Virus record (IMG/VR): IMGVR_UViG_3300031862_000785
Span: 1 to 59,668 of that record
Source of the DNA: a virus
Taxonomy: Duplodnaviria; Caudoviricetes
Length of the DNA stretch: 59,668 nucleotides
Direction: 5' to 3' (one strand)
Part shown: positions 2,406 through 32,380 of the stretch, piece by piece
Numbering within the stretch: position 1 is the first letter of the stretch
Layout of the letters: each line of letters begins with the position of its first letter
Program-made: the position numbers and the translations under genes
Notes under the pieces: generated by a model
Seen by the model: only the letters and a program-made list of their open reading frames with translations
Told to the model about the DNA's origin: nothing
The model's database searches: none

Positions 2406-2406
2406 C

Positions 2407-16742: not shown

Positions 16743-16763
16743 GTCATTTCCTCCTTGCCCCGC

Positions 16764-17665: not shown

Positions 17666-17669
17666 GGGA

Positions 17670-17855
17670 TTATCCCTTGGGGACAAAACTCCCGAAGCGC
17701 GCCTTGATCAGGTCGCGCACGGCCTCGATAGCCAGCACCGCCGCGCCGGCCCACCAGGCTTGCACCGAGTGGATGTCGGCCGCCCACACGCCGAGAGCGG
17801 CGAGCGCGCCGACAACAAGGCCCTTGCTCAGGGTCAATTTCCAGTTGAGTCCCAT
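17670..17855 (-). CDS. Small two-TM membrane protein (holin-like)
   Basis: 61 aa, two hydrophobic helices, GGAGG RBS. Confidence 0.6.
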   Translation of the reverse strand: MGLNWKLTLSKGLVVGALAALGVWAADIHSVQAWWAGAAVLAIEAVRDLIKARFGSFVPKG

Positions 17856-17877
17856 CTTGCGTTTCCTCCCTTTGAGC

Positions 17878-18183
17878 CTACAGGTAGGCCCGCTTCAGAG
17901 CCGCCTCGCCTCCCAGCCCGCGGGAGACAGAGAGCGCAATCACAGTCAGGTAGGTGGAGCCGTCGGCCGAGAGCTGATCTCCGACGGCCAGCACCGCTTC
18001 CGGGTCAAGGGTGACGGTGACTTCGGAGATCACCTGCTCTCCCTCGGCGTTTCGTACCAGGCGGCGCTTTTCCAGCCAGCGGCCAGCCAACTTGGCCGGA
18101 GTGCCGAAGGTGGGCTGGCCGTAGCCGTCCACCCCGGTCCGCGCACAGCACCAGATGTCCTGAGCAAGGTAATCGCCGACCAT
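17878..18183 (-). CDS. Head-closure (head-tail adaptor) protein
   Basis: DGYGQPTF...RLVRNAEGEQVIS; synteny. Confidence 0.7.
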   Translation of the reverse strand: MVGDYLAQDIWCCARTGVDGYGQPTFGTPAKLAGRWLEKRRLVRNAEGEQVISEVTVTLDPEAVLAVGDQLSADGSTYLTVIALSVSRGLGGEAALKRAYL

Positions 18184-18185
18184 AG

Positions 18186-18213
18186 TCCTACGAAGCCTCC
18201 TGGCGAAGTAGGA
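18186..18213. repeat. REP-like hairpin, family A
   Basis: TCCTACGAAGCCTCCTGGCGAAGTAGGA, intergenic. Confidence 0.5.
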
Positions 18214-18750
18214 TCACCTCGCGCTCCCTGGCGACCACTCGCCTTCGGCTCTGTCCGAGGTGGCGATGACGCCACCCTTGCAGATGTAGGGAGCGAGAAG
18301 AGAACGCGCCTCCGCGTTCTCGATCATCTGGCCGGCTGCGCCCGGCGCATACGACTCGCTCAGGCCGTCGACGGAGAACGAGGTGACGCCAGCTGCTTGC
18401 AGGGCGCGTCTGCGCTCCTGCTCCGCTCCCCGCGCCAGTAGCGCGAGTGCTTCCTCGCACTGCGCGTCCTTGACGGGCTGTGGGATCACATAGTTGCCCA
18501 CTTCGTCAGTATCTCGCTTGCGGGGGAAGGTCAGGCGTTGCCGTGGATCGGTAAACGCCGGCCCGCCGCCGTCCCAGAAACGATGGCGCTCCAGGTGCCG
18601 GCAGGCGGTGAGCAGCGCCTTCTCCTTGTCTGCGCTGCTCGCGCCGCTCCACGCATCGACGCGCAAACGGTCGGCGAAGTAGGTTTCCGCCTCCGCGAGG
18701 GTGACGTAGGAGTTGCTGTTCTCGCCGCCAACCGCCGCGTCAATGGCCAC
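18214..18750 (-). CDS. Head-tail connector protein (DnaT-like family)
   Basis: NSYVTLAEAETYF...KEKAL..A...Q.L.FPR...IP..VKDAQCE.A. Confidence 0.8.
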   Translation of the reverse strand: MAIDAAVGGENSNSYVTLAEAETYFADRLRVDAWSGASSADKEKALLTACRHLERHRFWDGGGPAFTDPRQRLTFPRKRDTDEVGNYVIPQPVKDAQCEEALALLARGAEQERRRALQAAGVTSFSVDGLSESYAPGAAGQMIENAEARSLLAPYICKGGVIATSDRAEGEWSPGSAR

Positions 18751-18753
18751 CTG

Positions 18754-19116
18754 CTACTCCTCGACTTCCTCCACCAGGCCGGGCGTGCAGAAGAGCAGGT
18801 GGATGGCATGCGCAGCCGCGAAGGGTTTCGGCGTGGGCGGCACGACCAGGATGTGCTCTCCGTAGCGCCATCGCACGTCCTCGCCAGTCTTGCTGCGCAG
18901 GTTCACGGTAAGGCCGGAGTTCGCGGCTTTCTCCAGGGCGTCCGTGCGCGCCGGCTCCTCCAGCGCCATCAAGGCGGTGAGCCTGCCCGGCTTCCCGCTC
19001 GTTGGCACGGGCGTTCGTTCTGCCGTCGCGACCGCCGCCTCGTTCACAGTCGGCTCCTGGACTGCGGCGGGATCGCTCTCGCCGTCCCCAGGCAGGACAC
19101 TCGTTTCCTTTCGCAT
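18754..19116 (-). CDS. Hypothetical protein
   Basis: 120-aa ORF with GGGAGG RBS. Confidence 0.6.
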   Translation of the reverse strand: MRKETSVLPGDGESDPAAVQEPTVNEAAVATAERTPVPTSGKPGRLTALMALEEPARTDALEKAANSGLTVNLRSKTGEDVRWRYGEHILVVPPTPKPFAAAHAIHLLFCTPGLVEEVEE

Positions 19117-19136
19117 GTTGACCTCCCAGAGTTACT

Positions 19137-19162
19137 CCGGGGCCGGGCTGAGCCGGCCCCGG
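19137..19162. other. GC-rich intergenic hairpin after the capsid genes
   Basis: CCGGGGCCGG-gctgag-CCGGCCCCGG; no clear U tract. Confidence 0.45.
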
Positions 19163-19166
19163 TCGT

Positions 19167-19469
19167 TCACTTGCCGATCGCCAGCCACTCCACGTCCACC
19201 GCGACGGTCGCCGCGATCAGCGTGCAGTCACTGGCCGCCGTGGGCTTCCAGCAGTAGAGGTTGATCTGGCCGGCGGCCGCGCCCAGGCCCCAGGTCGCCA
19301 GGGCGACCTCAAGTCCTGGAGCGGTTGATCGCTTGATCGAGACCAGCACATCCTCCACCTGGGAAAGCCCGGTGGCGATGTTGGTGGCCGACCCGGTGAC
19401 CGATGTCACCCCGCGGGCGATCTTGCGCCCGTCCCGACAGTCAGAGATGATCCGCGCGACGCTACTCAT
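19167..19469 (-). CDS. Putative capsid decoration protein
   Basis: 100-aa beta-rich ORF directly after the major capsid gene; GGAGG RBS. Confidence 0.55.
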   Translation of the reverse strand: MSSVARIISDCRDGRKIARGVTSVTGSATNIATGLSQVEDVLVSIKRSTAPGLEVALATWGLGAAAGQINLYCWKPTAASDCTLIAATVAVDVEWLAIGK

Positions 19470-19479
19470 CGGTCACCTC

Positions 19480-20391
19480 CTACTGCGCCAGGTCTTGCAG
19501 GCTCCCCATGCGGTAGGGGTTCCGGCAGACCAGCTGAGCGTAGTGGGTGATCCAGATCACGTCGGAGTCCTTGGTCTTCGCCATGGGCTTGGCCTCGAAG
19601 TCCTTGAGCACCATGTACTCCAGGAGCTCCTCGTTCACGAAGTCCATGCGGGTCTGCGGATAACCGGGCACCTTGATGAGCGGGACGCCCTCGAAGTCCA
19701 GCGCCTGGTAGCCACCGGTCAGGCTGGTCGGATTCTGCTGGCGGCGCTCGGCCCGCAGCAGGTCGCCGTAGCGGTACCACTGGGTCGAGCCAGCGTAGAT
19801 CGCGGTGACCCGACCGCCCCGCGCTTCCACGGTGGACTTGACGGTGCGGATCAGCTCCTCGGTGAGGTTGCGCGGGGTGCCGCCGTTGGCGCTGACGTAG
19901 GCCTTCCACCAGGTGTAAGTCCCGCGGTCAAGACCGGCGTAGGTGCCGGTGTCGGCGATCGCGGCGAACAGCCCCGTGACGTCCTTGCCGGAGTTGCCGG
20001 TGCCGTCTGACATCAACTGGGTGTTGATGTTGCCCCGCATGTCCGACAGACCCAGATCGAGTTCGGTTCGCAGCGCGGGCACGATCATCCCGCCAGCGTC
20101 ACCGACTGCCTGCGCCAGGCCGGAGACCTCCACCTCGACCTTGTTCAGCTTCCAACCGAGGAAGGCTTTCTTGAAGCCCTGGTTGCCGGCGCCGGCCCCG
20201 GAGTCGCCTTCCGCGTACGAGCCAGCCGAGGCGTTGCCAGCATAGCGCACCGGCCAGCGGACTCCCTCTCCTGCCCCCTGCTTCTGCTGGATGCGGGTCA
20301 GGAGGAAGGTGTTGGTGAACAGGGCCTCCACCCACGGCCCCTTGTAGAGCTGGACGATCAGTTCGGCCAGCGTGGTTGTGGTCGCAGCCAT
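19480..20391 (-). CDS. Major capsid protein (HK97 fold)
   Basis: 303 aa after the scaffold; DGTGNSGKDVTGL, TYAGLDR..YTWW, GYQALDFEGVP. Confidence 0.88.
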   Translation of the reverse strand: MAATTTTLAELIVQLYKGPWVEALFTNTFLLTRIQQKQGAGEGVRWPVRYAGNASAGSYAEGDSGAGAGNQGFKKAFLGWKLNKVEVEVSGLAQAVGDAGGMIVPALRTELDLGLSDMRGNINTQLMSDGTGNSGKDVTGLFAAIADTGTYAGLDRGTYTWWKAYVSANGGTPRNLTEELIRTVKSTVEARGGRVTAIYAGSTQWYRYGDLLRAERRQQNPTSLTGGYQALDFEGVPLIKVPGYPQTRMDFVNEELLEYMVLKDFEAKPMAKTKDSDVIWITHYAQLVCRNPYRMGSLQDLAQ

Positions 20392-20409
20392 TTCTCACTC
20401 CTTCTTTAG

Positions 20410-20435
20410 CCCGCCATAGCCTTAGCGACGGCGGG
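20410..20435. repeat. REP-like hairpin, family A
   Basis: CCCGCCATAGCCTTAGCGACGGCGGG, intergenic. Confidence 0.6.
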
Positions 20436-20444
20436 TGTGCCGGG

Positions 20445-21284
20445 CTAGGTCACGCCGGTGCGCAATGCCTGCTCCAGGCGATCTCCGGCCTCGGCGAGAT
20501 TCTTGGGGGACGGCGGGCTCTGTGGAGCCGGGTTGCTTGCCGCCCCCACGCTCTGCGGTTTCGGTTGCTGCTGTGGCTGGGAGACCAGGTAGGGCTTCTC
20601 CTTGACCAGCGTCTCGACGACCTCGTCGATCCCCGTGACCTTGCCCTCGTCATCCACCTGCACCGCGCCGAAGGGGGGCAGCGACCTGGCGATGATGAAG
20701 GCGACATCGGGATCGACGACGCCCTTGGACTGGGCGGCGAGCAGGAAGCGAGCGCGGATGGCGTCGTCCTTACGGCCGGATGCCTCTTTCTCCCGCGCCT
20801 GGCGCTCCTTCTCATAGAGCTCCTTGAAGCGCTCCTGCTCTTCCAGGGCCTTGCGCTCGGTCTCTTCCTGCGCGGCGGCGATCTCGGCCAGCCGTCGCTC
20901 GGCGCCCTTCGCGCGGGCAGTCAACTGGGCAATGCGATCCCGCACCGCGCCGGTGAACGTGTCGTCGCTCAACTCCAGGGTGCCGTCCTTGACCAGGCGG
21001 TCAATCTGCTCCTGGGTCAGTTTCACCTGGATGCCCTTCGCCTGTGTCGCCGGCGTTTGCGATTGTCCCTGGGCACCCTCGGCTTGCTGTCCCTGGGCAG
21101 GTTGCTGTCCGCCTGTGCTGGACTGGCCTGTCTGCGCGGCGGCCTGGCCCGCTTGCCCGGCGCTTGCCGACTGAGCGGCGTTAGCGCCCTGGGCGGCCTG
21201 CTCTGAGCCGACCGACTGGGCGTCGGCCTGACCCTGGCTGCCAGTTCCTTGCTGTCCCTGCTGGTTCTCGGTTCCTTCGCTCAT
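20445..21284 (-). CDS. Capsid scaffolding protein
   Basis: Q/G low-complexity N-terminus, coiled coil, LVKEKPYLV motif. Confidence 0.85.
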   Translation of the reverse strand: MSEGTENQQGQQGTGSQGQADAQSVGSEQAAQGANAAQSASAGQAGQAAAQTGQSSTGGQQPAQGQQAEGAQGQSQTPATQAKGIQVKLTQEQIDRLVKDGTLELSDDTFTGAVRDRIAQLTARAKGAERRLAEIAAAQEETERKALEEQERFKELYEKERQAREKEASGRKDDAIRARFLLAAQSKGVVDPDVAFIIARSLPPFGAVQVDDEGKVTGIDEVVETLVKEKPYLVSQPQQQPKPQSVGAASNPAPQSPPSPKNLAEAGDRLEQALRTGVT

Positions 21285-21343
21285 GGTCTCCCTCCGGTTT
21301 AACGCCCCGCGGCGGGTGCGCCGGATATCGCTCCGGCGAGCGG

Positions 21344-21691
21344 TTATCTCATGCCCTCCGGCGGCTCCTCATCCATTGCGCCGTAGTGCTTGCGGACGTG
21401 GGCCAGCGCTGCCACCCGCGCCGAGCGAGGCCACTTCACCCCGCCGCGCGCGCCGGACAGCGCGGCTGCGAGCGCATGCACGCCGTTGCGGTTCACCACC
21501 AGGGTGTCTCCCTGGAGTTCGTGGTGCGGCCCGCCCCACTCGCTGCGGTTCTCCAGGTCAGGCACGTAGGCAAAGGCTTCCCGTATCACGGCGGCGTCGC
21601 CGTTCTCAGCAAGCCGCCGCGCCAGGGCGGCCTTGTCCACGTCGCCCCACGCCTTGTCCGAAACCGTCGAGTTGTCAATCCGGATCGCCAT
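21344..21691 (-). CDS. Head-region hypothetical protein
   Basis: W..VDK...AFA...PHH...VNRNGVHALAAAL.GARGG...AH..KHY, a pattern seen in phage head morphogenesis genes. Confidence 0.65.
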   Translation of the reverse strand: MAIRIDNSTVSDKAWGDVDKAALARRLAENGDAAVIREAFAYVPDLENRSEWGGPHHELQGDTLVVNRNGVHALAAALSGARGGVKWPRSARVAALAHVRKHYGAMDEEPPEGMR

Positions 21692-21706
21692 CTCCAGCAT
21701 CTCCTG

Positions 21707-21810
21707 AAAAAGCAAAGAGGCGGGCTTTCTCTGAGCCGCCTGGGGCTACCAGGCACAGCTCTCAGAAAGCCCGCCTCTCGTTATCGAGTCGGCGGTATGC
21801 TATTCAGTTC
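21707..21810 (-). ncRNA. Structured leader/attenuator (copy 1) upstream of the head operon
   Basis: GAATAG-N8-CGA-CTCG(ATAA)CGAG, then a 15-bp stem (21716-30/21764-78) and TTGCTTTTT. Confidence 0.6.
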
Positions 21811-21815
21811 ACCCT

Positions 21816-21843
21816 ATTCTATCGCACCCGGGCCAGGTGTCAA
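21816..21843 (-). promoter_or_regulatory. Sigma70-type promoter
   Basis: TTGACA-N16-TAGAAT. Confidence 0.7.
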
Positions 21844-21935
21844 TACCCTCTTCCCGCGGCCTGTGTCCCGGGCGGGGTGGTCTGCTGCGTGCCAGCGCCT
21901 TGCTGTCCGCCCCTGACCTGATCCGAGGGGGCTTG

Positions 21936-22163
21936 TCAATCCTCGCCGGCGCCCTCCGCCATGACAAGCATCTCCTCCATGCGCATGAGCTGGGCGCGCT
22001 CCAGGCCGCCTCGGGCTCGCCGGAGATAGCGCTGGAGGGTCCGCCGGGCCTCCGGCGTCCCAGCGGCCCGCAGAATCGCGGCGCTCGCCTCTTCCATGAA
22101 GCCGGGCCGGATGCGGTGCCCTTTCCTCCTTCCACGCAGTAGTTCGTCGATGAAATCGGACAT
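21936..22163 (-). CDS. Small helical protein, candidate MuF immunity protein
   Basis: 75 aa, starts 2 nt after the MuF stop codon. Confidence 0.5.
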   Translation of the reverse strand: MSDFIDELLRGRRKGHRIRPGFMEEASAAILRAAGTPEARRTLQRYLRRARGGLERAQLMRMEEMLVMAEGAGED

Positions 22164-22165
22164 GC

Positions 22166-25100
22166 TTACGGCCTCGCTTGCTGTAGTGCCAGGGCCTCTT
22201 CAGCGAAATTCACCACCACGTTGTGGTCTGGCGAGTGGCCTACGATGGCTTCTATCTCCACTGCCGTTCTCACCCCATGCTTCGTCTTTCCGTAGTAACT
22301 CTCCATGCGCTGCGATAGCTCCCAGAGCCGCTGGTCGCGAGGGGTGCGGTAGGCCAAGTCCAGGTAGAGCTTCGGGTCAATCCCGCGCATCGGCTCAAAC
22401 ATGGAGCGCCCGGCATAAGGCCCGCCGAGAGCCTTGGCCAGGGCCTGCTGATAATCGCCATAGCTTGCCATCCCGGCAAAGTCGCGCTTGTCCAGGCCGG
22501 AGGGAAACCCCATGATGCGCTCGAAGAGCTTCGGCGCCGTCTCGTCGGCCCCCGCGGCGGTAAGGCCTTCCTCTATCCACCTCTGCGCCGCCGTCGCGTA
22601 CTCGTGGGTCTTGATTGCCCCGTCCATCCCCATAGCATGGGTTGCCTCATGCACCAGGGTGTTGAAGGAAGAGGTCATTTCCATCTTCTGGTTCCGGGAA
22701 AGCTTTGCCCAGGAAGCTGCATCGTGCTTCAACATCGCATCCAGGCGATTCCTCGCCTCCGAGCCGATGCTGATGGCGCAGTCCCAGTCCTTGTGCCCGC
22801 CGAAGGCGCCTCGACCGGTGCGCAAGTCTCCATTCCATCCATGCTTCGCGCCCACCATCTCAGCCAGCTCATCGCAAGTGCGCCCCGTCAGTTCCAGGTC
22901 TGTCTTTGGCTTCGTGAGCTTGGGCGGAGCAGCGATGGGCCGAGCGGCGGCCACGGCCTGTCCCGTGCGCTTGCCGCGCTCCGCCACGCCGAAGAAAGCC
23001 GGCCCGCTGATTGCCCGATAGCCCGTTATTGCCCGGGCCGCCTCGGTGAGGGAGCTATAGACGCGGCCCTCGTAGTAGACCTTGCCTCCTTCGAGGATGT
23101 TCACAACATGTCGTTGGCCCTTGAAGGTGCGCTCCAGGACGGTGCCCGCGGGCAGAGCGCGCAGCTCTGGCTCCGGGATGGACACCCGCGTGGGTCTGAG
23201 GCGCCCTCGCGCCGCGGCAACCCCTGCCCGCCCCGCCCGCACAAGCTGCCGCTTTCCCGCGGCCCGGGCGACGCCGGGGAACTCCTTGCGGAAGCGCCGT
23301 TGGAGTTCGGCAGGGGACTTGTTCAGGAGGTCGGGCGAGATGATGCCCCGCTTCTTCTCGTCGTCGGTTGCGAGGCGTTCCACGAATGGCGTGAGCACGT
23401 GAACGCAGTTGTGCACCACGAGTCCCTCCACGACGTAGCTGTTGTCCTCCAGCACCTCAAGGTTGAAGACCCGACAAGTACGCCACCGCTCCGGTATGTA
23501 AGAAGTAGGCGCCCACTGCGTGTCCCTGGGTGCCGCGGGAGGCGACCCGTGACCATGCACTGCCTGATCTGTGGGAAGGCCATGAGCGTCAACGCCTCGG
23601 CGAAGCAGCGGCGACGCACCTGCGGTTATGCCTGTCGGGCTGAGTTGCAGTTCCGGCGTTCGCTGGCCCGCATGGAGGAACTCGTCGGCGAGCCACTCGA
23701 GCGCTACCTGCGACGCCGCTACGAGAAGGAGTGTTGCTCCATCAACGACCTCGCGCGCGAGCTCACCGGCGGTGACGTCCACACCATCCTCAAAGCCATG
23801 CGCCGACTTGAGGTGCCAGTCCGCCCCAGAGGCCATCAGGTCAAGGGCCTCACCAAAGAGACTTCTGACCTCTATGACCTCCACTCCCTTCGGATGCAGG
23901 TGTGCAATCCCTCGCAGCTCCGCCACACCCAGATCGCGCGAGCGCGCGGCCAGGCGCTGCGGAGCCGCCGCCGGCCTTCCCCCTCGGAGAAGAAACTCGC
24001 AGATCTGCTCGCCGGAAGCCATCTGACGGAGCGATGGCGCTTCCAAATGCCGTGGCGTGGCTACGTGCTCGACTTCGCGTTCCCGGCCGTTCTTCTTGAC
24101 GTGGAGCTCGATGGGAAGAACCACTGGAACTCCGACCGGCGCGCCCGTGACCGAAAGCGAGATGCTTTCCTGGCCGAGGAGGGATGGAAGGTGGTGCGCA
24201 TCAGCACGAAGCGCTTCGAGTCCAACCCACGGAAGGTCTTGGCCGAAATCCTGGCCCTCCTGGCCGACCGCCAGCGGGACATGGTGGCGAGCAACATGCC
24301 CAGCCGCTATCCAGCCCCAGGGGCACAGGAATGGGTGTTCTGGTGTCGCTGACACCTGCGATTCGCCGGCCATGAGCGTGACGACCGGCCCCTCGTAGGG
24401 ACGGGCGAACACTTCGGTGACGGCCCTGTAGCGACCGCGGTGAGTGAGCACCTCGTCGCCAACGCGTACCTTCTCAATCGGCACCAGGCCGTGGCGGGTC
24501 GTGACACGTTGGCCTGGCAACAGGCACCGCGGGTGAAAAGGCGGGCCGCCGTTGATGGCGGTGATCGGCGGATACACGGGGTGCGGCCCGTCGAGAGAGA
24601 CGACGGCATTCTCATAGTAGCGGCAGAAGTCTTCCGCGTTGTGCGCCGATACCTGGGCGAGGGTAACGCCGTGCTCGCGCAGGCGGTTGATGGTGCCCTG
24701 GGTCATCGCCTCGCGCGTGGTCGTGCGCGCCACCATTTCGGCATAGCGGTCGAGGGGCCACTGCCGCCCTAGCGCGTCCACGAACGTCGGCCTGCCCGCA
24801 GCAATCAGCCGCTGCTCCAGTTCGCGGCTGACCTCAATACGAGCGCGGCCGGCGGCAATCCCCCTGGCAACAGCGAGCATCCCCTCCCGTCGGAAGACGT
24901 CGTCCACGCGGCGGCCTATCTGCACGAGTGCCGCGCTTGTGGTCTGCAGCATAGACTCCATGATTGCCCGCGCGGCCTCTCGGTGCACCTGGGAGAAGAC
25001 TTCTCGCTCGCGGCGGCCTACTACCGTTGTTCCGCGTCGGCGCAGGTTGATTCCCGCGCGGCGGATGTTGCGAACTCCTTCGTCGGCGAACTCAAGCCCG

Positions 25101-25351
25101 ATGTCGTAGGCGCGGGGGATGTTGAACTCTATCCAGGCAGCAGCCTCGTCTCCGAGATCGGCGAGGATAGTCTGATACTGGCGCAGCAGGGCGACGGCCC
25201 GGCCTCGCTGCCCGGCGAGCGTCGCCGCGTCCGCGAGCACGTCCATCATGTCTGCCGCCCCGTCCCGATAGAGAGCAGCCAGAGAGTTGATCTCGCCGGT
25301 GAATGCTCGCCGGAACTCCTCAACTCGGCGACGGCCGATGGGTGGAGGCAC
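22166..25351 (-). CDS. MuF/minor head protein with intein, DUF2924/RAMA-like domain and C-terminal zincin metallopeptidase
   Basis: Follows the portal; GRQWPLDRYAEMVARTT, C..Y.N, PPFHPR|C..HVL; HEATH...WIEEG near the C-terminus. Confidence 0.85.
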   Translation of the reverse strand: MPPPIGRRRVEEFRRAFTGEINSLAALYRDGAADMMDVLADAATLAGQRGRAVALLRQYQTILADLGDEAAAWIEFNIPRAYDIGLEFADEGVRNIRRAGINLRRRGTTVVGRREREVFSQVHREAARAIMESMLQTTSAALVQIGRRVDDVFRREGMLAVARGIAAGRARIEVSRELEQRLIAAGRPTFVDALGRQWPLDRYAEMVARTTTREAMTQGTINRLREHGVTLAQVSAHNAEDFCRYYENAVVSLDGPHPVYPPITAINGGPPFHPRCLLPGQRVTTRHGLVPIEKVRVGDEVLTHRGRYRAVTEVFARPYEGPVVTLMAGESQVSATPEHPFLCPWGWIAAGHVARHHVPLAVGQEGQDFGQDLPWVGLEALRADAHHLPSLLGQESISLSVTGAPVGVPVVLPIELHVKKNGREREVEHVATPRHLEAPSLRQMASGEQICEFLLRGGRPAAAPQRLAARSRDLGVAELRGIAHLHPKGVEVIEVRSLFGEALDLMASGADWHLKSAHGFEDGVDVTAGELAREVVDGATLLLVAASQVALEWLADEFLHAGQRTPELQLSPTGITAGASPLLRRGVDAHGLPTDQAVHGHGSPPAAPRDTQWAPTSYIPERWRTCRVFNLEVLEDNSYVVEGLVVHNCVHVLTPFVERLATDDEKKRGIISPDLLNKSPAELQRRFRKEFPGVARAAGKRQLVRAGRAGVAAARGRLRPTRVSIPEPELRALPAGTVLERTFKGQRHVVNILEGGKVYYEGRVYSSLTEAARAITGYRAISGPAFFGVAERGKRTGQAVAAARPIAAPPKLTKPKTDLELTGRTCDELAEMVGAKHGWNGDLRTGRGAFGGHKDWDCAISIGSEARNRLDAMLKHDAASWAKLSRNQKMEMTSSFNTLVHEATHAMGMDGAIKTHEYATAAQRWIEEGLTAAGADETAPKLFERIMGFPSGLDKRDFAGMASYGDYQQALAKALGGPYAGRSMFEPMRGIDPKLYLDLAYRTPRDQRLWELSQRMESYYGKTKHGVRTAVEIEAIVGHSPDHNVVVNFAEEALALQQARP
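23408..24526 (-). mobile_element. Intein (373 aa, residues 276-648 of MuF)
   Basis: Block A CLLPGQRV...IEKVRVGDEVLTH; block B ATPEHPF; blocks F/G VFNLEV.EDNSYVVEGLVVHN, followed by +1 Cys. Confidence 0.93.
23549..24352 (+). CDS. DUF559/Vsr-like homing endonuclease encoded antisense within the intein
   Basis: GGGAGG at 23537-42, GTG 23549 (or ATG 23555); CxxC..CxxxC, HTH-like segment, then SPSEKKL..FQ..YVLDF..VELDG..HW..RD..RD..L...GWKVVRI. Confidence 0.85.
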   Translation: MTMHCLICGKAMSVNASAKQRRRTCGYACRAELQFRRSLARMEELVGEPLERYLRRRYEKECCSINDLARELTGGDVHTILKAMRRLEVPVRPRGHQVKGLTKETSDLYDLHSLRMQVCNPSQLRHTQIARARGQALRSRRRPSPSEKKLADLLAGSHLTERWRFQMPWRGYVLDFAFPAVLLDVELDGKNHWNSDRRARDRKRDAFLAEEGWKVVRISTKRFESNPRKVLAEILALLADRQRDMVASNMPSRYPAPGAQEWVFWCR

Positions 25352-25452
25352 GCTTCAACGCTCCTCACGACAGGCACTGACACTGGGTCCACAGCCCCGA
25401 AACCGGACTGCGCGCGGCACATGTCGGATCACACAGATCCACCACATGCAGC

Positions 25453-26952
25453 TCACCCCTCTGCCCCGGCCTCCGGCTGCTCCTCTGTGCGGGCTTCCTG
25501 CCCCTTGCGACCGCCAGCCCCGGTGAGAGCCACGGCCTGCCCGGTTTCCTCGGCGATCCGCGCCACCTCGGCCTCGACCGCGTCCGGGCCGTCCAGGCGG
25601 CGCACTGAGGACTCGACCGAGGTGTTGCCCGAGGCCAGGCGCTGGCTCTCGATCTCCACCATCTCCACCATGTCCTCTGGCAGCCCATCCGCCCACTGGA
25701 TGGTCGGCTCGGCAGGCTCGTATTCGCCGGACCCGTGAGTCACATCAAGAACCTGGGCGGTGAGGAGCGCCGCTTTGAGCGCGGTATCGTAGTAGAGCCG
25801 CTTGCGGTTGATCTTTGCCAGGGTGCGCAGCAGTCGAAGCCGCAATGCCCGGCCGCTTTCGGCGACTCCGAACTTGTCCAGCCCGAAAGCCGACGGCGCG
25901 GTCTCGGAGAGCATGAAGAGCAGGTCGAGCAACTTCTCGAACTGTGTGAAGGCCGCGGTCAGGTGGGCGTCCCAGGTGATGTAGGAAGGAGGCTGATCGC
26001 CCGGCCCCAGCTCGATGGTCTCCATGTGGTCGAACCGAATCTTCCCATCTTCGTCCACGAAGCCGGGCGGCACCACGATCTTCGGAGCCACGTGCTTATC
26101 CAGCACTTCATCGATCTGGGAAACGCGGTTATTCAAGGACTCGAAGAGCGACTCAAGGCCCTCATAGTCGCTGATCCCCCAGAACCGCGAGCCGTACCGG
26201 AAGTTGGGGACGTGGAAGATCGGGATGTGATCCAGGCCGGTCTGTTCCTCTTCGGGCAGGTCCTGATAGGCTTCGAGGGTCTTCAGGGGAATCTGCTGGA
26301 GCGCCTTGCCGCCAATCGTGATCGTCGCGGCCTGGCTTCCCGCGACGGACAGAGTGGAGACGCTGCCCAGATCGAAGAGCTGGTGGCGGATGACGCCTGG
26401 CTCGTGCACCTCGGCTCGCAGGTAGGCGCGCTTGGCATCCTTGGGATCGCGCTTCACCCAGGCAAGGGTGACGCGGATCACCTTGCGCACATCATCGTCA
26501 TCCAGTTCGGGGAAGTAGATGCTGGCGGGGACCTCTTCAATGATCGACTCTGGTTGCTCTGCTTGCGGAGTCCGCTTCCCCCAGCGCACCTTGTAGACTG
26601 CATCCCCCCGGAACGAGTTGGACAGGGCCGATTCGTAGTTGACGGCGTGCAGGTTATTGCGACTGACGACCTGGGCCAGCGCTTCCTGCGCCTTCTCATC
26701 CTCCTGTGTTGCCAGGCCCGCCTTGAGCGAAGCCGAAAGGAAGTCTGGCTGCTCCCCGAAAAGCAGGTCAGCGGAAAGCCGCGAGATCAGCCCGGCGAAG
26801 TTGGCCACGATATAGCGCTTCATCTGGTAGGGCTGCGGCACCACGGCAAAGACCAGCTTGTGCTGCCCCAGGAACAGCCGCTCATACCGCTGGTAAGTGG
26901 CGATGCGCTCCTGGTGCCCCTTGGGCGGGTAAGTGCTCAGGTCAAGTGCCAC
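25453..26952 (-). CDS. Portal protein (SPP1 gp6-like)
   Basis: 499 aa; NFAGLISRLSADLLFGE, HVPN, WGISDY, ESGRALR; AAGGAG RBS. Confidence 0.9.
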   Translation of the reverse strand: MALDLSTYPPKGHQERIATYQRYERLFLGQHKLVFAVVPQPYQMKRYIVANFAGLISRLSADLLFGEQPDFLSASLKAGLATQEDEKAQEALAQVVSRNNLHAVNYESALSNSFRGDAVYKVRWGKRTPQAEQPESIIEEVPASIYFPELDDDDVRKVIRVTLAWVKRDPKDAKRAYLRAEVHEPGVIRHQLFDLGSVSTLSVAGSQAATITIGGKALQQIPLKTLEAYQDLPEEEQTGLDHIPIFHVPNFRYGSRFWGISDYEGLESLFESLNNRVSQIDEVLDKHVAPKIVVPPGFVDEDGKIRFDHMETIELGPGDQPPSYITWDAHLTAAFTQFEKLLDLLFMLSETAPSAFGLDKFGVAESGRALRLRLLRTLAKINRKRLYYDTALKAALLTAQVLDVTHGSGEYEPAEPTIQWADGLPEDMVEMVEIESQRLASGNTSVESSVRRLDGPDAVEAEVARIAEETGQAVALTGAGGRKGQEARTEEQPEAGAEG

Positions 26953-26974
26953 TACATATCTCCTTTCCGCTGGG

Positions 26975-27055
26975 AAAGCAAAAGCGAGCCGAGGTCCTGT
27001 CAGGGAACCTGCGGCTCGCCTCCGGTTATCCGGTCGCCGAGCGTCTATTCGATTG
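26975..27055 (-). ncRNA. Structured leader/attenuator (copy 2) upstream of the portal
   Basis: GAATAG-N8-CGA-CCGG(ATAA)CCGG-AG, then GCGAGCC..GGCTCGC stem and TTTTGCTTT. Confidence 0.6.
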
Positions 27056-27060
27056 TCAGC

Positions 27061-27089
27061 ATTTTATGCCCGGGGTCTCCCAGCGTCAA
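27061..27089 (-). promoter_or_regulatory. Sigma70-type promoter
   Basis: TTGACG-N17-TAAAAT. Confidence 0.7.
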
Positions 27090-27817
27090 GCAGTGGTTGT
27101 GCCACAGAATCTCTGTTGCAGCAACTGAAAGTCCTCCTCCAGCCGATCATGATAGTCGGGAAGATATTCGAGGATGACGTTCCCTTGCCAGCCATACCCG
27201 ATCAAAGCTTCCACAACCTGCAGGCACTCGTCATCGATTGGCAGGTGATGCGTTCTGTGGCCGCCCTTGCCGGAGAGATGGACGGTGGAGACATGCGGGT
27301 GGTACTCATGCACGATCCGCCACACCACTTCCGTGTCATGAAGGTGGGCGACATCCAGCGTCATCGGGCGTGCAAGTCGCATGATGTCGTCGACGCTGAA
27401 AAGTCGCTTGCCTCCCATGAAGGTTTCCAGACAGAAGCTCACCGAGTAGGCCGCCTCGATTCCCCGGCAGGTTTCCAGTACCCTATGCTGGGTTTCGGGC
27501 ACCGGCCGATCCTTCTGAAACCTGCTGGGATGAACGGTGATCTCGCGGACTCCGAGGAGGCTGGCGAATCGGCCCACCTCCTCCGCCCAGATCCGGAAAC
27601 CTGGGTCGGCGAGCCTGCCCTGTGGAGCATGAACGCTGAGGATCGGCGTCCGCCATTTCAGGAGTAAGCCAGCGAGTTCGGTGAGGTGGGGATGGATCAG
27701 CTCGTAGTCGGTCATCTTGTATGGCAGCGCGAGTTCGATGGGAATCTGACACTCGCGATAGCGCGGGGTGAACTGCTCGAGCGTGTTGAATGATTGCCTG
27801 ATCCCGAATCTGATCAT
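27086..27817 (-). CDS. Xylose isomerase-like/AP endonuclease 2 TIM-barrel protein
   Basis: Metal-ligand motifs IELALP, SVHAP, TVHP, LET, TLDVAH, VHLS, HLP, LEY. Confidence 0.8.
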   Translation of the reverse strand: MIRFGIRQSFNTLEQFTPRYRECQIPIELALPYKMTDYELIHPHLTELAGLLLKWRTPILSVHAPQGRLADPGFRIWAEEVGRFASLLGVREITVHPSRFQKDRPVPETQHRVLETCRGIEAAYSVSFCLETFMGGKRLFSVDDIMRLARPMTLDVAHLHDTEVVWRIVHEYHPHVSTVHLSGKGGHRTHHLPIDDECLQVVEALIGYGWQGNVILEYLPDYHDRLEEDFQLLQQRFCGTTTA

Positions 27818-27818
27818 G

Positions 27819-28676
27819 TTACGTCGGGGAATCCTCCCAGAGCCTGACTTCCAGTTGCTCCAGGAGCGCATTCAGGCGCTCATAGGCATCGCGAGTCACG
27901 ATGGCACGCTCCTCCGGATCGGCGATCTCAAGAAACTCAGCGACCGCGACCGGCCCGAAATGCTCAGGTGAGAGGAACTTGCTCCGTATCTTCGACAAGC
28001 CTTCAGCCACCAGCCGCTTGTCGACATGAGGCCGGAAGGCCTCCACCAAGGCAGCAACACCTCCTGGGTAGTTGGCGACGCAGTAGAAGATGTCGTAGCA
28101 ATCCTTCTCCTTGCGCCGGTCATGAAGAGCCATCCCCTTCATCACGAGGAAGGCCACTACGTCTGCGACCTTCACGGTCACCGTGTCAAGCGCACCGTTC
28201 GGCAGCCGTCCCTCGACGCGAACCTGGACGCAGTGGTCGAAGACCAAGTCAGCCCCACGTGCTTTGCGGGCTCGGACATCCTGGACGACCTGCGTGCGGC
28301 GGCCCTTCCCGGTCCCCCCGTACTCTCCGGCCAGGAGATCAACTTCGACCTCGACCGGCGGGCCATCTCCGATGGTGACCACCTTGAAGAATCGGAAGGG
28401 CTGCTCGTGGTCTTGTCGGTAGCCGCGCGCCTCAAGCGCCTTGAGGAACGTGCTGTAGGTATCGTCTGAGATGTGCGCAAAGTCTATGGCCAGATCCACG
28501 TCCAAGGTGCCCGCTGGCTCTGTGTCTGCATCGCGGAGGATCAGGTGCGGCACCCAGCCGCCGATGACCGCGATGTGTTCGCGGAACTCGCCGAGCATGC
28601 CGAACAACTCGATGAGCACCGAAAAGGCCGCGTCTACTGCTCTGGCTGCGTAGTCTGATCTGGTTCTGGGTTCCAT
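27819..28676 (-). CDS. AbiEii-like nucleotidyltransferase toxin
   Basis: VIGGW...GTLDVD, VDLL, MKG.A..DR..EKD.YDI. Confidence 0.8.
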   Translation of the reverse strand: MEPRTRSDYAARAVDAAFSVLIELFGMLGEFREHIAVIGGWVPHLILRDADTEPAGTLDVDLAIDFAHISDDTYSTFLKALEARGYRQDHEQPFRFFKVVTIGDGPPVEVEVDLLAGEYGGTGKGRRTQVVQDVRARKARGADLVFDHCVQVRVEGRLPNGALDTVTVKVADVVAFLVMKGMALHDRRKEKDCYDIFYCVANYPGGVAALVEAFRPHVDKRLVAEGLSKIRSKFLSPEHFGPVAVAEFLEIADPEERAIVTRDAYERLNALLEQLEVRLWEDSPT

Positions 28677-29866
28677 CGCGGCCTAATGCGCCTTTCGTAG
28701 AGGAAGTCTGCGGCCTCTTCGCCACGGCCCTTGTAGCTCTTCAAGTCGAGGTAAAGTTGGATGTCCGACACGACCTTCGCTCCCCCGACGTCCTGGAGAC
28801 CATAGAAGACGCCCTCATCGTAGGGGCGGAGCAGGATCACGTTGGCCCCCGTGGGGACCGCCTTCAACTCCAATGCCGCTGCAATCTCATTGAACTTGGA
28901 GAGCCTGCGCAGCAGGTCGAGCTTCAAGTCCTGCTCGATATCCTCTCGGTCGTCCTTGGTGAACCCGGCCCGGCCGACTAACTGCCAGGCCTTGTGTCTG
29001 ATGAGCTGAACGGCATAGTCCTCGAGTCTCTCATCAACGAATGCAAAGGCGCGGTCATAGCGAGCGAAGGGGGCAACCCGGCTTGCACCCGAGAACAGGG
29101 CCAAGCCGTAGCGCATGCCTCTCCGTTCACACTCCGCGGCAAGGCGCTCCTCCACCTCTGGAATGCGGAGCATCGAGTACAGAGACCGCACGTCGTTCAC
29201 TTCGTAGGTGTAGGCCTGCGCCCAATCGCGAAGGAGGTCTTCAGGTTTCGCCAGCCAGAAGCGGCGGCGCTCTTCGCCCAGCAGGTCTTGTTCGAGCAGC
29301 GCCCGCTTCAAGTTGGACGTCTGCGCAAGACTGATCCGCGCTTCGGCCGCCAAGTCGCGGACATACCATCGCCGGGCAGGGTCAGCGAGTAGAACACGTA
29401 AGACCCGCGTGGACCGCGGTGAGAACAACGCCCTCCGAAGTCTCCGCACGGGCGAGGGATTGGGATATCCGGTCTTCTCAATGAACACCTGGTCAAAGGC
29501 GAGCAGAACATTCCCAGCCAGATCGAGACAGCCGACCCCGAACTGCTGGCAGAGAGCCCGGCCCCGGTCGCTTATGTAGGGAGCAGCCACCACCCCGTAG
29601 GCATCTGGCACACTCGCGACATAAGCCTTGAGCTGCTCTCCGGCATCACGCAGGGTCCTCGGAAGACCCTCTGTCTTCACCTCCACCAGGAGCCGGCGCG
29701 CTCCGACGGGCGTCTGAATCTCCACCACCAGGTCGGAGACGCGCCCGGGCGCGATGGGGACCTGCTGCTCGATCCGCAACACATCCACGAATGGCACTTC
29801 CTCCAGCACCTCACGAAGGCGCTGGGCGGTCTCTGCTGTCAGATTTCTCTCTTTGATCGCTGGCAT
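28634..29866 (-). CDS. AbiEi-like type IV antitoxin carrying a 44-aa insertion
   Basis: DLVVE..LLVEVK, APYIS, LDLAGN, wHTH, then GANVILL.PYD.GV and VVSDIQLYLDL...GRGEEAA. Confidence 0.8.
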   Translation of the reverse strand: MPAIKERNLTAETAQRLREVLEEVPFVDVLRIEQQVPIAPGRVSDLVVEIQTPVGARRLLVEVKTEGLPRTLRDAGEQLKAYVASVPDAYGVVAAPYISDRGRALCQQFGVGCLDLAGNVLLAFDQVFIEKTGYPNPSPVRRLRRALFSPRSTRVLRVLLADPARRWYVRDLAAEARISLAQTSNLKRALLEQDLLGEERRRFWLAKPEDLLRDWAQAYTYEVNDVRSLYSMLRIPEVEERLAAECERRGMRYGLALFSGASRVAPFARYDRAFAFVDERLEDYAVQLIRHKAWQLVGRAGFTKDDREDIEQDLKLDLLRRLSKFNEIAAALELKAVPTGANVILLRPYDEGVFYGLQDVGGAKVVSDIQLYLDLKSYKGRGEEAADFLYERRIRPRWNPEPDQTTQPEQ

Positions 29867-29934
29867 GGTCTGCTCCAACCTGACGGTGAACAAAGTCGCC
29901 CTGGCGAACTGCCAAGGTGTTTCGGCAAGTCGCC

Positions 29935-29983
29935 AGTTTCACCGTCTCGGTGAAACTATACCATATACCGAAACAATGGTCAA
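29935..29983 (-). promoter_or_regulatory. Moron promoter with overlapping operator palindrome
   Basis: TTGACC-N17-TATAGT with extended -10 TG; perfect inverted repeat AGTTTCACCG-N3-CGGTGAAACT at 29935-57. Confidence 0.75.
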
Positions 29984-30046
29984 GATAGCTGGAGCAGGGT
30001 GGGCCAGGAATTCGGGAGCCAGGCATGCAGGCTCGCGTGATTGCCG

Positions 30047-30307
30047 TCACCTGACGAGCTTGATCTTCTTCACCGCCGCCTCCGACAACCGCAGCCGCAC
30101 CAGGTCTGGGTCGCCCGCGTGCACGTCGAGTTCCTCGATGGTGCAGTAGGGATTCTCGGCGAAGAAGTCCAGCAGCGCCGCCTGGGCGGCGGAGACGACT
30201 CGCAGCTCACAACCGGCGGGCAGTTTCACTGGCAACTCGCCGCTGATCTGGAGGAGGGCCTCTCCCAGAGACTTGAGACTCGTGGCTGGTGCTTTCAACG
30301 TTTGCAT
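30047..30307 (-). CDS. Small protein with a DUF2292-like motif
   Basis: LLDFFAENPYCTIEELDVHAGDP...KKIKL resembles the repeats in 53921..54235. Confidence 0.55.
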   Translation of the reverse strand: MQTLKAPATSLKSLGEALLQISGELPVKLPAGCELRVVSAAQAALLDFFAENPYCTIEELDVHAGDPDLVRLRLSEAAVKKIKLVR

Positions 30308-30317
30308 TGCCTCTTCC

Positions 30318-31943
30318 CTACCATCCCGCCGGTCGTTGAGTCGTGCCGCGAGACACACCCCGCTTGCGCGCTTGCCAGGCGATCCCGGCTGCCATCACCC
30401 GGTCGTCGAACTTGCCCTCCTGCGCCTCCTGCGAACCCGTGTCTGTCGTGACGAAGGTTAAGCACTCGTCGACCAGGTCGGGCGAGTGAACCAAGGGATG
30501 CTCGCCTGCGATTGCCGCCGCCAGGTCATCTACCAGGATGGGCTTGGTGGCCTGGTCGGTGGGCCAGCCGAGCATGGGCTTCCCTTTGCCCGTCTGGTCG
30601 TAGCGCACGTGGTAGTAGAGCCGCGGGTAGCGGCAGACGTTGCGCAGCGTGTTCAGCGTCGAGTGCCCGTGGTTGTTACGCTCGACCGCTACCGTCGCCA
30701 GGTTGTAGAAACGGCCCAGAGCGTCCAGCAGGCAGCCGAAGCGATCCGGCGCAATGCGCCCGTGGAGTTCGGCGACTTGCTCCCCGGTCTCCCGGTCAAC
30801 CACACAGGCACAGGAGGCGTCGCCGCCGGCCAATCCCTCGCCCACGTCCGCACCGACGACGTAGAGCCGCCCCTTCTCGGGTCGCTTCCACACCGACAGC
30901 CGGGCCGGCGCAACCCCGATGTCCTGCCCTCGCGCATCCTTGAGGGCAGCCAGCATCTTTGGCGCGGGCTCGGCGACGATGCGAGCCTGGATTGCCAGCA
31001 GCGACTGGGTGTCGAAGCAGCAGCGCCCGCTGGCGAGGAAGCAAGTCACATCATCCTCAGGGTATTCGGCCTTGAAGCGGTCTCGAAGCTGCCGCTGCTT
31101 ATCGCGCCGCCAACGAATCTGATCGTCGTCGAGGCTCCACGCGCGTTTGAGCCGCGTCTCCTCCTGGCTGAGGTCGGTCAGTGGCTCGCCCGCGATCCGA
31201 TAGGCCGGGTCTTCCCACCAGACATAGAACGCCGTCGCAAAGTCATTGCCGCCGCTTTTGGCCTCGGTCCAAAGGCTGTGAAAGAAGTTGCCCATCCCAT
31301 TTGCGGTGGACTCGATGACGATTCGGCCACCGGTGGGAACCGCTTCCGTCAGCGCAGTCAGGGCTTCTTCAGGCTTCGGCCAGAAGGCGAACTCCGAGCA
31401 GTGCAGGTTGTTGATGGTCTGGCCCCGTCCGAACGTCAGGCTGCCGGCGGTGCCCACGTAGAACTGGCTGTTGATCTTCGGCCACAGGAACTCTCTGCGG
31501 TTGGAGAAACGAGGCGGCCCTACTCGTCGGCGCTCCTCCTCTGGCAGCCGCTCCCAGAACAACTGCACGATGCGGAAGATCTTCTCGCTGGAATCGGTAT
31601 CGTGCGCCACGATCACCGAAGTCGTATTCAGTCGCAGCAAGGTGTCCGCGAAGAACAAGCCGCAGATCAGCGTCGTGAAGCCGAGCTGCCGCGGCTTCAG
31701 AATCATGTCCCGAAGCGTGCGGTGAGCCCAGTAATCTACCTGGGCCGCGTTGAGCAGGAACGGAATCACTCGTCTATCCTTCGTGCGAATCCACAGGTTC
31801 GCTTCGATCCACGGCCTGGGATTCCGCCGCTCCTCCAGCAGGGCCGCCAGCCGGGCCTCCAGCGCCTCTCGCACACGCGCGGAGGAAGGTAAGGGCAGAT
31901 TCGGCCTCGCTGTCGCTGAGTTGTCGCAAATCGAGGTCACCAA
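30318..31943 (-). CDS. terL: Terminase large subunit
   Basis: LKPRQLGFTT (Walker A), LHCSEFAFW (Walker B), IESTANG, GADVGEG, VERNNHG, DDRVMA; start uncertain. Confidence 0.93.
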   Translation of the reverse strand: MVTSICDNSATARPNLPLPSSARVREALEARLAALLEERRNPRPWIEANLWIRTKDRRVIPFLLNAAQVDYWAHRTLRDMILKPRQLGFTTLICGLFFADTLLRLNTTSVIVAHDTDSSEKIFRIVQLFWERLPEEERRRVGPPRFSNRREFLWPKINSQFYVGTAGSLTFGRGQTINNLHCSEFAFWPKPEEALTALTEAVPTGGRIVIESTANGMGNFFHSLWTEAKSGGNDFATAFYVWWEDPAYRIAGEPLTDLSQEETRLKRAWSLDDDQIRWRRDKQRQLRDRFKAEYPEDDVTCFLASGRCCFDTQSLLAIQARIVAEPAPKMLAALKDARGQDIGVAPARLSVWKRPEKGRLYVVGADVGEGLAGGDASCACVVDRETGEQVAELHGRIAPDRFGCLLDALGRFYNLATVAVERNNHGHSTLNTLRNVCRYPRLYYHVRYDQTGKGKPMLGWPTDQATKPILVDDLAAAIAGEHPLVHSPDLVDECLTFVTTDTGSQEAQEGKFDDRVMAAGIAWQARKRGVSRGTTQRPAGW

Positions 31944-32343: not shown

Positions 32344-32380
32344 CAGCTCATCACCCCCCTGGGCGCGTCATTTTGCGCCA

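Follow-up and report, generated by a model that had tools for sequence, protein, structure and literature searches.

The DNA analysed here (the window) is a complete 59.7-kb provirus record of IMG/VR (IMGVR_UViG_3300031862_000785, positions 1 to 59,668; 65% G+C), in which nearly all genes lie on the minus strand, and our subject is a short leader that occurs twice in it, once before the portal gene (leader B, 27089 to 26953) and once before the capsid operon (leader A, 21843 to 21701). All features of the window named below are on the minus strand unless stated otherwise. Leader B runs into a ribosome-binding site (RBS; AAGGAG, 26965-26960) and the GTG start, at 26952, of the portal gene (25453-26952, 499 amino acids; SPP1_portal, 3.3e-11; phrog_533, 7.9e-49). 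The rest of the portal operon consists of the gene for a minor head protein with an intein-like insertion (22166-25351) and an open reading frame (ORF) for a basic protein of 75 amino acids (21936-22163), both located between the two leaders. Leader A is followed by the RBS AGGAG (21705-21701) and by the capsid operon, the first ORF of which (115 amino acids, ending at 21344) starts at the ATG at 21691 or at 21700, the former being favoured because the homologues begin with MPIRIDN. The genes for the scaffold (20445-21284) and the major capsid protein (19480-20391) come next, with tail genes beyond.

Anatomy of the two leaders

A sequence-only reading of the window had ascribed to both leaders a near-consensus promoter, a GAATAG element, a 4-bp hairpin with an ATAA loop and a terminator, and all of these features were located. 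The promoter of leader A (21816..21843) consists of TTGACA (21843-21838), a 16-nucleotide (nt) spacer and TAGAAT (21821-21816) and agrees with the consensus at 11 of 12 positions; that of leader B (27061..27089), with TTGACG (27089-27084), a 17-nt spacer and TAAAAT (27066-27061), agrees at 10 of 12. The region 15000-34000 holds three promoter-like sites, two of them being those of the leaders, with 1.8 ± 1.5 expected. Shortly past each promoter lies a 5' motif, GAACUGAAUAG in leader A (21800..21810; GAAUAG at 21805-21800) and GACAAUCGAAUAG in leader B (27045..27057; GAAUAG at 27050-27045), the transcripts presumably starting at about 21809 and 27054, respectively. GAATAG-N8-CGAC has exactly two zero-mismatch matches in the window, at 21805-21788 and 27050-27033, and 59 matches at up to two mismatches, with 38.3 ± 6.6 expected. 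The pattern CGAC-NN-GATAAC-NNN-AGGCG, which extends into the terminator, is far more selective, as up to two mismatches allowed three matches against 0.11 expected, both exact ones being the leaders.

The small hairpin (P2) is CUCG-AUAA-CGAG in leader A (21788-21777) and CCGG-AUAA-CCGG in leader B (27033-27022), so that the two copies differ by two compensatory pairs. The sequence-only reading was right in treating this hairpin as a structure conserved through compensatory changes and missed a helix that encloses it, P1. In leader A the two helices form a segment (21771..21795) made up of CCGCC (21795-21791), GA, P2, a single A and GGCGG (21775-21771), and the minimum free energy (MFE) fold of the isolated segment is P1 plus P2, at -13.6 kcal/mol. 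In leader B (27014..27042; MFE of the isolated segment -9.9 kcal/mol) P1 pairs UCGGC (27040-27036) with GGCGA (27020-27016) or, in an alternative register, GCUCG (27042-27038) with CGAGC (27018-27014).

The terminators begin inside these segments. In leader A (21707..21778) the hairpin spans 21778-21716 and is followed by a U tract at 21716-21707, overlapping the 3' arm of P1 and the last bases of P2; a 97-mer containing it folds at -50 kcal/mol (z = -6.5). The terminator of leader B (26975..27024; hairpin 27024-26979, G+C core 27021-26982, U tract UUUUGCUUU at 26983-26975) likewise shares nucleotides with the 3' arm of P1, and in identical relatives it was read as a 38-nt hairpin of -25 kcal/mol with a U-rich tail. 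The leaders, of 113 and 104 nt, fold at -58.4 and -42.1 kcal/mol, with z = -6.3 and -3.5 against shuffles. After each terminator come UUUGCUUU, the RBS and the start codon. To account for UUUGCUUU, base pairing between the 5' motif and the U tract was considered and rejected, the mean longest helix being 5.26 nt against 5.65 nt for shuffled motifs and 5.10 nt for permuted partners.

Conservation and covariation of the leader in related phages

A scan with exact patterns found both copy types in two more viral records and copy B in a third, all near-identical to the window. Searches guided by the portal protein extended the set to 24 viral loci and 57 from metagenomes, the identity of their portals being 57-97%, and in almost every locus the portal gene and the capsid operon were preceded by a promoter, a short leader, a strong terminator and an RBS, in sequences quite different from one another. 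The layout noticed before the portal and head operons of the window is thus a conserved unit. A portal profile found no locus among 185,579 species genomes.

A covariance model (R1) was built from the aligned segments of the relatives, a check that the sequence-only reading had proposed. In the window it matched exactly two places, with 48.6 and 46.9 bits, scores that are partly due to construction, as near-identical copies sat in the seed; the next best match had 13.0 bits. Altogether it gave 83 matches in 71 related loci, 83/83 of them on the gene strand. Two copies each were present in a complete 83.9-kb record (G006) and in G001, G004, G005 and G008, at the same fixed positions, invariably ahead of the portal gene and of the capsid operon.

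Leader properties were compared over 67 distinct leaders, three weak matches having been dropped. The isolated P1-P2 segment folds into a hairpin closed by P1 in 67/67 (-7.0 to -15.3 kcal/mol), the terminator hairpins measure 35-77 nt and -24.5 to -49 kcal/mol, and at least five U occur in the next 10 nt in 66/67. A promoter matching at least 9 of 12 consensus positions lies within 130 nt upstream in 60/67; P1 is located 14-27 nt past its -10 element in 49 of these 60 and more than 30 nt past it in 11, where, in the cases inspected, an extra hairpin ahead of the conserved 5' motif fills the gap. The consensus of this motif over 59 distinct aligned rows is CAAC(C/U)GAAUA(G/C). P1 is a 5-bp helix with a 5' arm of 5 nt (CCGCC, CUGCC, CCGCU, UCGCC, CUUGCC) located 2-4 nt after GAAUAG and complementary to GGCGG or GGCGA, and its 3' arm comprises the first 5 nt of the 5' arm of the terminator in all 67 leaders. 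Since P1 plus P2 and the terminator share these five nucleotides, the two structures are mutually exclusive.

Covariation was tested on 48 distinct aligned segments at nine pairs named in advance, against 500 shuffles. Paired cells amounted to 94.0%, against 77.0 ± 1.3% in the shuffles and 31.7-53.9% with the partner slid, and the covariation score was 0.545 against 0.222, neither value being reached by a single shuffle (0/500 each). Three P2 pairs carried 21-24 double changes each among AU, UA, CG and GC, and the P1 pair 28-54 was CG in 37 segments, UA in nine, UG in two and unpaired in none; the remaining P1 positions show C-to-U or U-to-C changes only, or are invariant. As the C/U variation in the 5' arm of P1 keeps its pairing with G, it is a signature of RNA rather than of DNA. 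Judging by these properties, the leader is very probably a cis-acting attenuator with competing structures.

The module occurs apart from promoters as well. In a 26-kb relative, G007, four modules (L130:3201, 4771, 9081 and L131:10620) each overlap a terminator of their own, ahead of the scaffold gene, between the scaffold and capsid genes, ahead of the tail tube gene and behind the tail fibre genes. Two of the four have no promoter-like site, and the module is a unit at the RNA level, separable from the promoter. Outside the leaders, neither a third copy nor an antisense partner of the P2 module was found at up to one mismatch in eight phage records and the window. Rfam 15 gave no match at the gathering score in the window and none at E ≤ 1 in five related loci; in 21600-27200 there were four weak matches (E 0.043-9), none of them on a leader. 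The titles and abstract openings of the literature searched hold no description of this leader.

Several further observations concern the distribution of the leader. The capsid-operon promoter is kept together with its spacer and upstream flank (GGGTATTGACAYCTGRCCCGGGTSCGRTAGRAT; window 21816-21850) across phages with differing leaders, namely in the A-type leaders of L002, L006, L012, L021, L024 and L105-L108, which suggests that a protein-binding site may overlap this promoter. At L084:4005-4055 and L042:10491-10541, just upstream of a functional class-4 capsid leader, there are leader-like remnants with a promoter and a class-7-like hairpin and without a terminator; they look like relics of leader replacement. 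Leaders with a further type of hairpin, CUGAU-CAG-AUCAG (L198:3920-3973, L199:6207-6260), precede genes with no detectable similarity to any protein of the window, so the module may extend beyond this phage group. A scan with P2 patterns returned 61 stretches, of which one was a real leader, on a 5-kb contig (L134) of a metagenome-assembled genome (MAG) labelled Candidatus Hebobacteria (Armatimonadota). Together with one relative of the OrfX protein described below, also from an Armatimonadota MAG, this contig gives a weak hint at an Armatimonadota host. The closest cultured phages by portal, infecting Firmicutes (Paenibacillus, Bacillus and Clostridium phages), reach about 35% identity, and Paenibacillus phage Unity has no such leader.

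Hairpin types and the small gene behind terL

P2 falls into at least 12 types among the relatives, including C(UC/CG)G-AUAA, CAUC-GCGCA-GAUA, AUCG-CAA-CGAU, CUCG-ACAUC-CGAG, CAUC-GCGCA-GAUG, CAUC-GAGCAA-GAUG, CAUC-CGAC-GAUG, CGUU-ACGCA-AACG, CGUG-AGCA-GACG and GAUCG-CUGCAA-CGAUC. The loops are 3-8 nt long, mostly 4-5 (AUAA in the window; ACAUC, NNGCA, CGAC and CAA in relatives). In 17 contigs with both leaders, representing 10 distinct combinations, the P2 modules differed by a mean of 1.0 edits within a genome and 5.9 between genomes (0/20000 permutations), and the 5' spacer and the whole terminator were unrelated between the two leaders of one genome. Where the two copies of P2 did differ, they did so by a compensatory stem change (as in the window and in G007) or at the first loop positions only. 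The four P2 of G007 combine CAUC/GAUG and CGUC/GACG stems, a compensatory A-U to G-C change, with the loops ACGCA, ACGAC and GCGCA. The suggestion that the hairpin is a phage-specific recognition element, following the logic of nutL/nutR and boxB, was supported in that the two leaders of a genome agree in it and genomes differ from one another. Even phages whose portals are 93-96% identical to that of the window carry another P2 in both leaders (class 1 in the window, class 2 in L006 and L008, class 3 in L021), and such a switch among near-identical phages means that the leaders are exchanged or co-evolve as a matched set. This pattern is what a genome-specific factor acting in trans predicts, and neither a universal ligand nor the host polymerase nor a fixed attenuator predicts it; on balance, we consider it probable that such a factor reads P2.

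The gene that follows the hairpin type is a small ORF, orfX, present after terL in every related locus. In the window it encodes 86 amino acids of the class-1 type (30050-30307; longest ORF 30047-30358) and starts 10 nt past the stop of terL (30318-31943), which is itself preceded by a terS-like ORF with a sigma-r4-like helix-turn-helix (31774-32343). In relatives without insertions orfX starts on the terL stop, runs across the whole leader B promoter (-35, spacer and -10) and has its stop codon in GAA-UAG within the 5' motif (for example, L025:4633-4869, L011:2038-2274 and L021:5627-5884), so that a ribosome terminating there would cover the 5' arm of P1. A tblastn search with the window orfX found 11 loci, 11/11 of class 1. 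The association was quantified over 36 distinct combinations of P2 and orfX, P2 being taken as similar at an edit distance of up to 2: pairs with similar P2 (n = 92) had a median orfX identity of 87% (minimum 41), whereas for those with different P2 (n = 538) the median was 0 and the maximum 62%, with two pairs at 60% or more. It cuts across the phylogeny of the backbone, because orfX follows the class of P2 and not the identity of terL or the portal: loci of classes 2, 3 and 4 with terL up to 95% and portals up to 96% identical to those of the window have no detectable similarity in orfX, and class-1 loci with terL at 82-83% keep orfX at 76-87%. It is the match of the orfX type with leader A, at a distance of 4-7 kb and beyond conserved genes, that forms the independent part of the association; in the window, L006 and L046 insertions of 0.7-2.9 kb separate orfX even from leader B.

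The main OrfX family (18 diverse members) is marked by the motif W..L..A..RE....GGFGE.TV...F.DG.P....V.ER.P.YRL and has 50 relatives among 5.8 billion proteins, all of them unnamed or hypothetical. Its predicted structure is a helix with a beta hairpin (predicted local distance difference test, pLDDT, 78.6). A symmetric homodimer model scored 0.46 against 0.00 for the best of three controls, the runs agreeing in at least 97% of contacts and the pLDDT with the partner being at least 68; a score of this height was reached by 20/30 proteins solved as pairs of one chain and by 1/23 solved as single chains, a calibration that applies only roughly here, as an alignment of our own was used. One of ten OrfX variants matched DUF2292 (PF10055) at E = 0.071, with 13.2 bits against a cut-off of 22, and nine gave nothing; the motif G-x-V-x-V-x-F-x2-G-x-P...ER is one that we take to resemble those of DUF2292/YezD-like small proteins. 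From its co-variation with P2, OrfX is the best candidate reader of the hairpin, its RNA binding being putative and the assignment one that we make only tentatively.

Other candidates were rejected as readers. The excluded proteins either are 89-99% identical across a switch of class or are missing from complete genomes: the 75-amino-acid basic ORF is 97% identical in the class-2 locus L006, the terS-like ORF is 99% identical in the class-2 loci L008 and L025, and neither the first ORF of the capsid operon nor a ParB-like ORF nor a methylase tracks the class of P2. The complete G006 lacks a sigma-like ORF (53132-53752), for which identity is down to 44% in the class-1 G008.

Among the neighbouring genes, an AbiEi-like gene, an NTP_transf_8 (AbiEii-like) gene and a 261-amino-acid ORF make up the insertion at 27086-29983 between orfX and leader B. 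It has a lower G+C content (0.59-0.62) and brings a promoter of its own (TTGACC-17-TATAGT, with TG), after which come two hairpins (29955-29899); of the relatives examined, G005 and G008 alone contain it. In the minor head protein about 370 amino acids (residues ~277-648) are inserted that no relative has, and this insertion opens with a Hint/intein domain; an antisense ORF of 265 amino acids within it (23555-24352, plus strand) matches DUF559 (1.1e-15) and REase_MTES_1575, and it seems that the endonuclease-like gene of the intein is encoded antisense to the intein frame, that frame staying open. The sigma-like ORF mentioned above encodes a sigma-70-like protein (region 2; phrog_1740). The phage further encodes an amidoligase and glutamine amidotransferase pair (1698-3570), kept in most relatives and of undescribed product, and a serine recombinase with a DUF2924 partner (57395-59454), a second DUF2924-like segment lying within the minor head protein.

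Proposed late-operon control, its alternatives and known systems

Taken together, these data incline us, by a little, to the reading that the late operons are under local antitermination by a phage-specific factor, with a logic like that of nut and boxB and mechanics like those of a ribonucleic antiterminator (RAT). The terminase operon would be transcribed and OrfX made together with the terL product; because orfX follows terL immediately and would thus be produced with the terminase, a feed-forward cascade is conceivable, leading from the terminase operon through OrfX to the portal and head operons. Strong late promoters of the sigma-A/sigma-70 type would fire and give transcripts opening with CAAYYGAAUAG. 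By default the terminator would win, releasing an RNA of some 80-105 nt, and it would also insulate the operon from upstream transcription. Late in infection OrfX or another phage factor, presumably a protein, would bind nascent P2, probably together with the 5' motif, and hold P1 closed; this closure would cost the terminator stem the five base pairs adjoining the U tract, and transcription would proceed into the portal and capsid genes.

In its fullest form, which we regard as rather doubtful, this reading would make OrfX a new family of small dimeric hairpin-binding antiterminators. Each lineage would possess its own OrfX with the matching hairpin before every late-operon terminator, amounting to at least 12 protein-RNA types, including an apparently non-homologous replacement in the lineage of the window; the protein gene and both leaders would be exchanged together, and orfX, translated from the mRNA of the terminase and ending, in relatives, in the GAA-UAG of the leader, would couple the terminase to the opening of the portal and capsid operons.

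A number of results weigh against local antitermination by OrfX. Two of the five global covariation measures were not above the shuffles (pairs with double changes, 4 against 3.9, reached by 447/500 shuffles; further pair types, 14 against 12.2, reached by 48/500). The support for P1 comes from its 5' arm and one covarying pair, because GGCG of the 3' arm was fixed by the selection regex; P1 has only 5 bp and is far weaker than the terminator, and leader B in the common register contains a G.G mismatch, which a shift of the register by 2 nt removes, giving five perfect pairs that covary (GCUCG/CGAGC in leader B, ACUCG/CGAGU in relatives). The four P2 of G007, being similar but not identical, imply that recognition is not strictly sequence-specific, and part of the P2 identity within a genome could stem from short-tract gene conversion between the leaders. 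As orfX adjoins leader B in most phages, linkage explains part of its association with P2. As to the protein, OrfX is not basic and has no RNA-binding signature, no Pfam family scored above its cut-off for any of the ten variants, and neither a sequence match in PDB nor a convincing structural one was found (Foldseek, best E 2.9; VIA-align, best Z 3.4). No relationship to the main family could be detected for the OrfX type of the window (hhalign probability 0.15%), the model of which is poor (pLDDT 52).

The read-through by a factor bound to the hairpin, which the sequence-only reading had supposed to be nut/boxB-like, holds as far as the logic of a phage-specific hairpin goes; a processive, nut-type action is not supported, since P1 and the presence of one module per terminator point to local competition of hairpins. 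Processive antitermination of the nut/boxB, put or LoaP-leader kind, in which the hairpin with or without a protein modifies the polymerase and P1 is incidental, we hold to be unlikely. A linear motif with a nearby phage-specific hairpin does mirror boxA, spacer and boxB, and the two copies per genome share their hairpin like nutL and nutR. The module, however, always stands immediately before a terminator and overlaps it, one module for each of the four terminators of G007 speaking for local rather than processive action and against Q-type loading as well; moreover, changes in the 5' arm of P1 preserve pairing, and the loops (AUAA, ACAUC, NNGCA) are generally not GNRA-like. In Pfam scans of about 66 ORFs of the window none of the N, Q, NusG/KOW, CAT, ANTAR and HutP domains was found, in accordance with the earlier remark that an N, Q or NusG homologue is missing; CAT_RBD and PRD had no match either, and in the case of the N family very divergent arginine-rich peptides could escape Pfam.

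It is also improbable that the leader is an ON-type transcriptional riboswitch, in which the antiterminator would be stabilised by an ion or small molecule, perhaps a metabolite specific to the phage or to infection, bound in a pocket formed by the 5' motif and P1, with P2 peripheral. The competition of P1 with the terminator and the conserved single-stranded CAAC(C/U)GAAUA do amount to the architecture of a small riboswitch, the variation of the internal loop and of P2 is of the kind seen in peripheral elements, and the conserved amidoligase and amidotransferase pair could be cited in favour of such a metabolite. Such a switch, however, leaves the matching of P2 within genomes, its simultaneous change in both leaders and the co-variation of orfX unexplained, and the junction nucleotides are not conserved, in addition to the missing Rfam match.

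An equally small chance is given to a factor-independent attenuator or insulator that ends the upstream operon and by a fixed low read-through sets the stoichiometry of portal to capsid, P1 and P2 merely tuning the terminator. The terminator of leader B is indeed the only one after terL and orfX in the relatives, where the orfX stop in GAA-UAG lies 3-5 nt before P1 and a terminating ribosome would mask P1 and thereby favour termination of upstream transcripts. Terminators of -24 to -49 kcal/mol with U tracts would nevertheless leave essential structural genes nearly silent, and an insulator offers no reason for P2 to match within a genome or for orfX to co-vary with it.

That P2 acts in DNA, as a palindromic operator for a phage-specific dimeric DNA-binding protein (possibly OrfX) serving as a roadblock or activator a short way past the promoter, appears very improbable. 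It is an inverted repeat in DNA, symmetric changes of half-sites would mimic covariation, and the OrfX dimer model is symmetric; on the other side stand G.U-type pairs in P2 and their frequency in P1 (UG in 10/48 and 20/48 at two pairs), the single orientation of 83/83 matches relative to transcription, the asymmetric loops, the copies inside operons far from promoters, and the two window copies, which differ in the half-site and share the loop. A sigma-dependent pause or Q-like loading at GAAUAG was rejected, as this motif does not resemble a -10 element and stands at varying distances from the promoter, and as copies without promoters exist.

If local antitermination by a hairpin-specific factor is correct, the timing of structural genes in a whole group of uncultivated temperate phages would follow a mechanism so far undescribed in phages, with local opening of every late terminator, unlike control by a late sigma factor or activator or by processive N or Q. 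There would then be a new cis-regulatory RNA family absent from Rfam, a new family of small proteins with many natural variants in specificity, which would be of interest as orthogonal switches of transcription, and a sequence signature marking the starts of late operons in phage contigs from metagenomes. Since a tiny ORF co-varies with two RNA hairpins distant from it, the idea lends itself to a direct test.

Among known systems, the late control of phage lambda by Q at PR'-tR', which involves a short 6S transcript (see also the abstract of PMC7547250), resembles the arrangement proposed here in the strong late promoter, the terminator close to it before the structural genes and the short RNA expected in the off state. 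It differs in that no Q family protein was matched among the window ORFs, that GAAUAG lacks T at position 6 and is not -10-like, with a variable distance to the promoter, and that modules occur without promoters, the specific element residing in the transcript and not in promoter DNA, whereas Q relies on a binding element within the promoter and on a -10-like pause element early in the transcribed region. With put of phage HK022 the leaders share structured cis-acting RNAs just past the promoters; in either case a genome has two copies, similar in fold and differing by compensatory changes. The put RNAs have two stem-loops and no overlap with a terminator, and they act on the polymerase without a phage protein, for which reason uniformity among phages of one host would be expected, whereas here the hairpin differs between close relatives. 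ON riboswitches of the pbuE adenine type are similar in size and in the design of P1 against terminator, and unlike them the present leaders have no conserved junction or pocket, belong to no Rfam family and possess a genome-specific P2.

Closer parallels are found in the N/nut system of lambda, in which a linear motif followed by a small phage-specific hairpin also stands in the 5' transcript, the two copies per genome carry the same hairpin, and different phages have different hairpins with presumably cognate factors. Here an N homologue is missing among the ORFs scanned, the motif differs from boxA and most loops are not GNRA-like, so that neither a boxA consensus nor a GNRA-like boxB pentaloop is recognised (no search aimed at these consensus sequences was made); further, the helix around the hairpin overlaps the terminator, and each terminator has its module, which speaks for local action, whereas a nut site gives processive read-through of distant terminators from one place in the operon. 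Passive antitermination by BglG/SacY/LicT at RAT and by ANTAR proteins, HutP and GlpP is similar in the imperfect hairpin of 25-29 nt, the 3' side of which forms the start of the 5' arm of the terminator and which a bound protein would stabilise, this overlap with an intrinsic terminator being present in every leader compared. Leaders regulated by ANTAR proteins have two tandem hexaloop hairpins, whereas the present ones have one two-part hairpin with loops of variable length. No CAT/PRD, ANTAR or HutP domain is encoded in the window as judged by Pfam, the rules for sequence and loop are others, the setting is a late operon of a phage, and OrfX as the candidate reader cannot be placed in any described family. 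We conclude that the leaders form a genuine and conserved family of cis-regulatory RNAs, apparently not described before and with a concrete candidate partner, and that in kind this family is a variant of known attenuation and antitermination systems.

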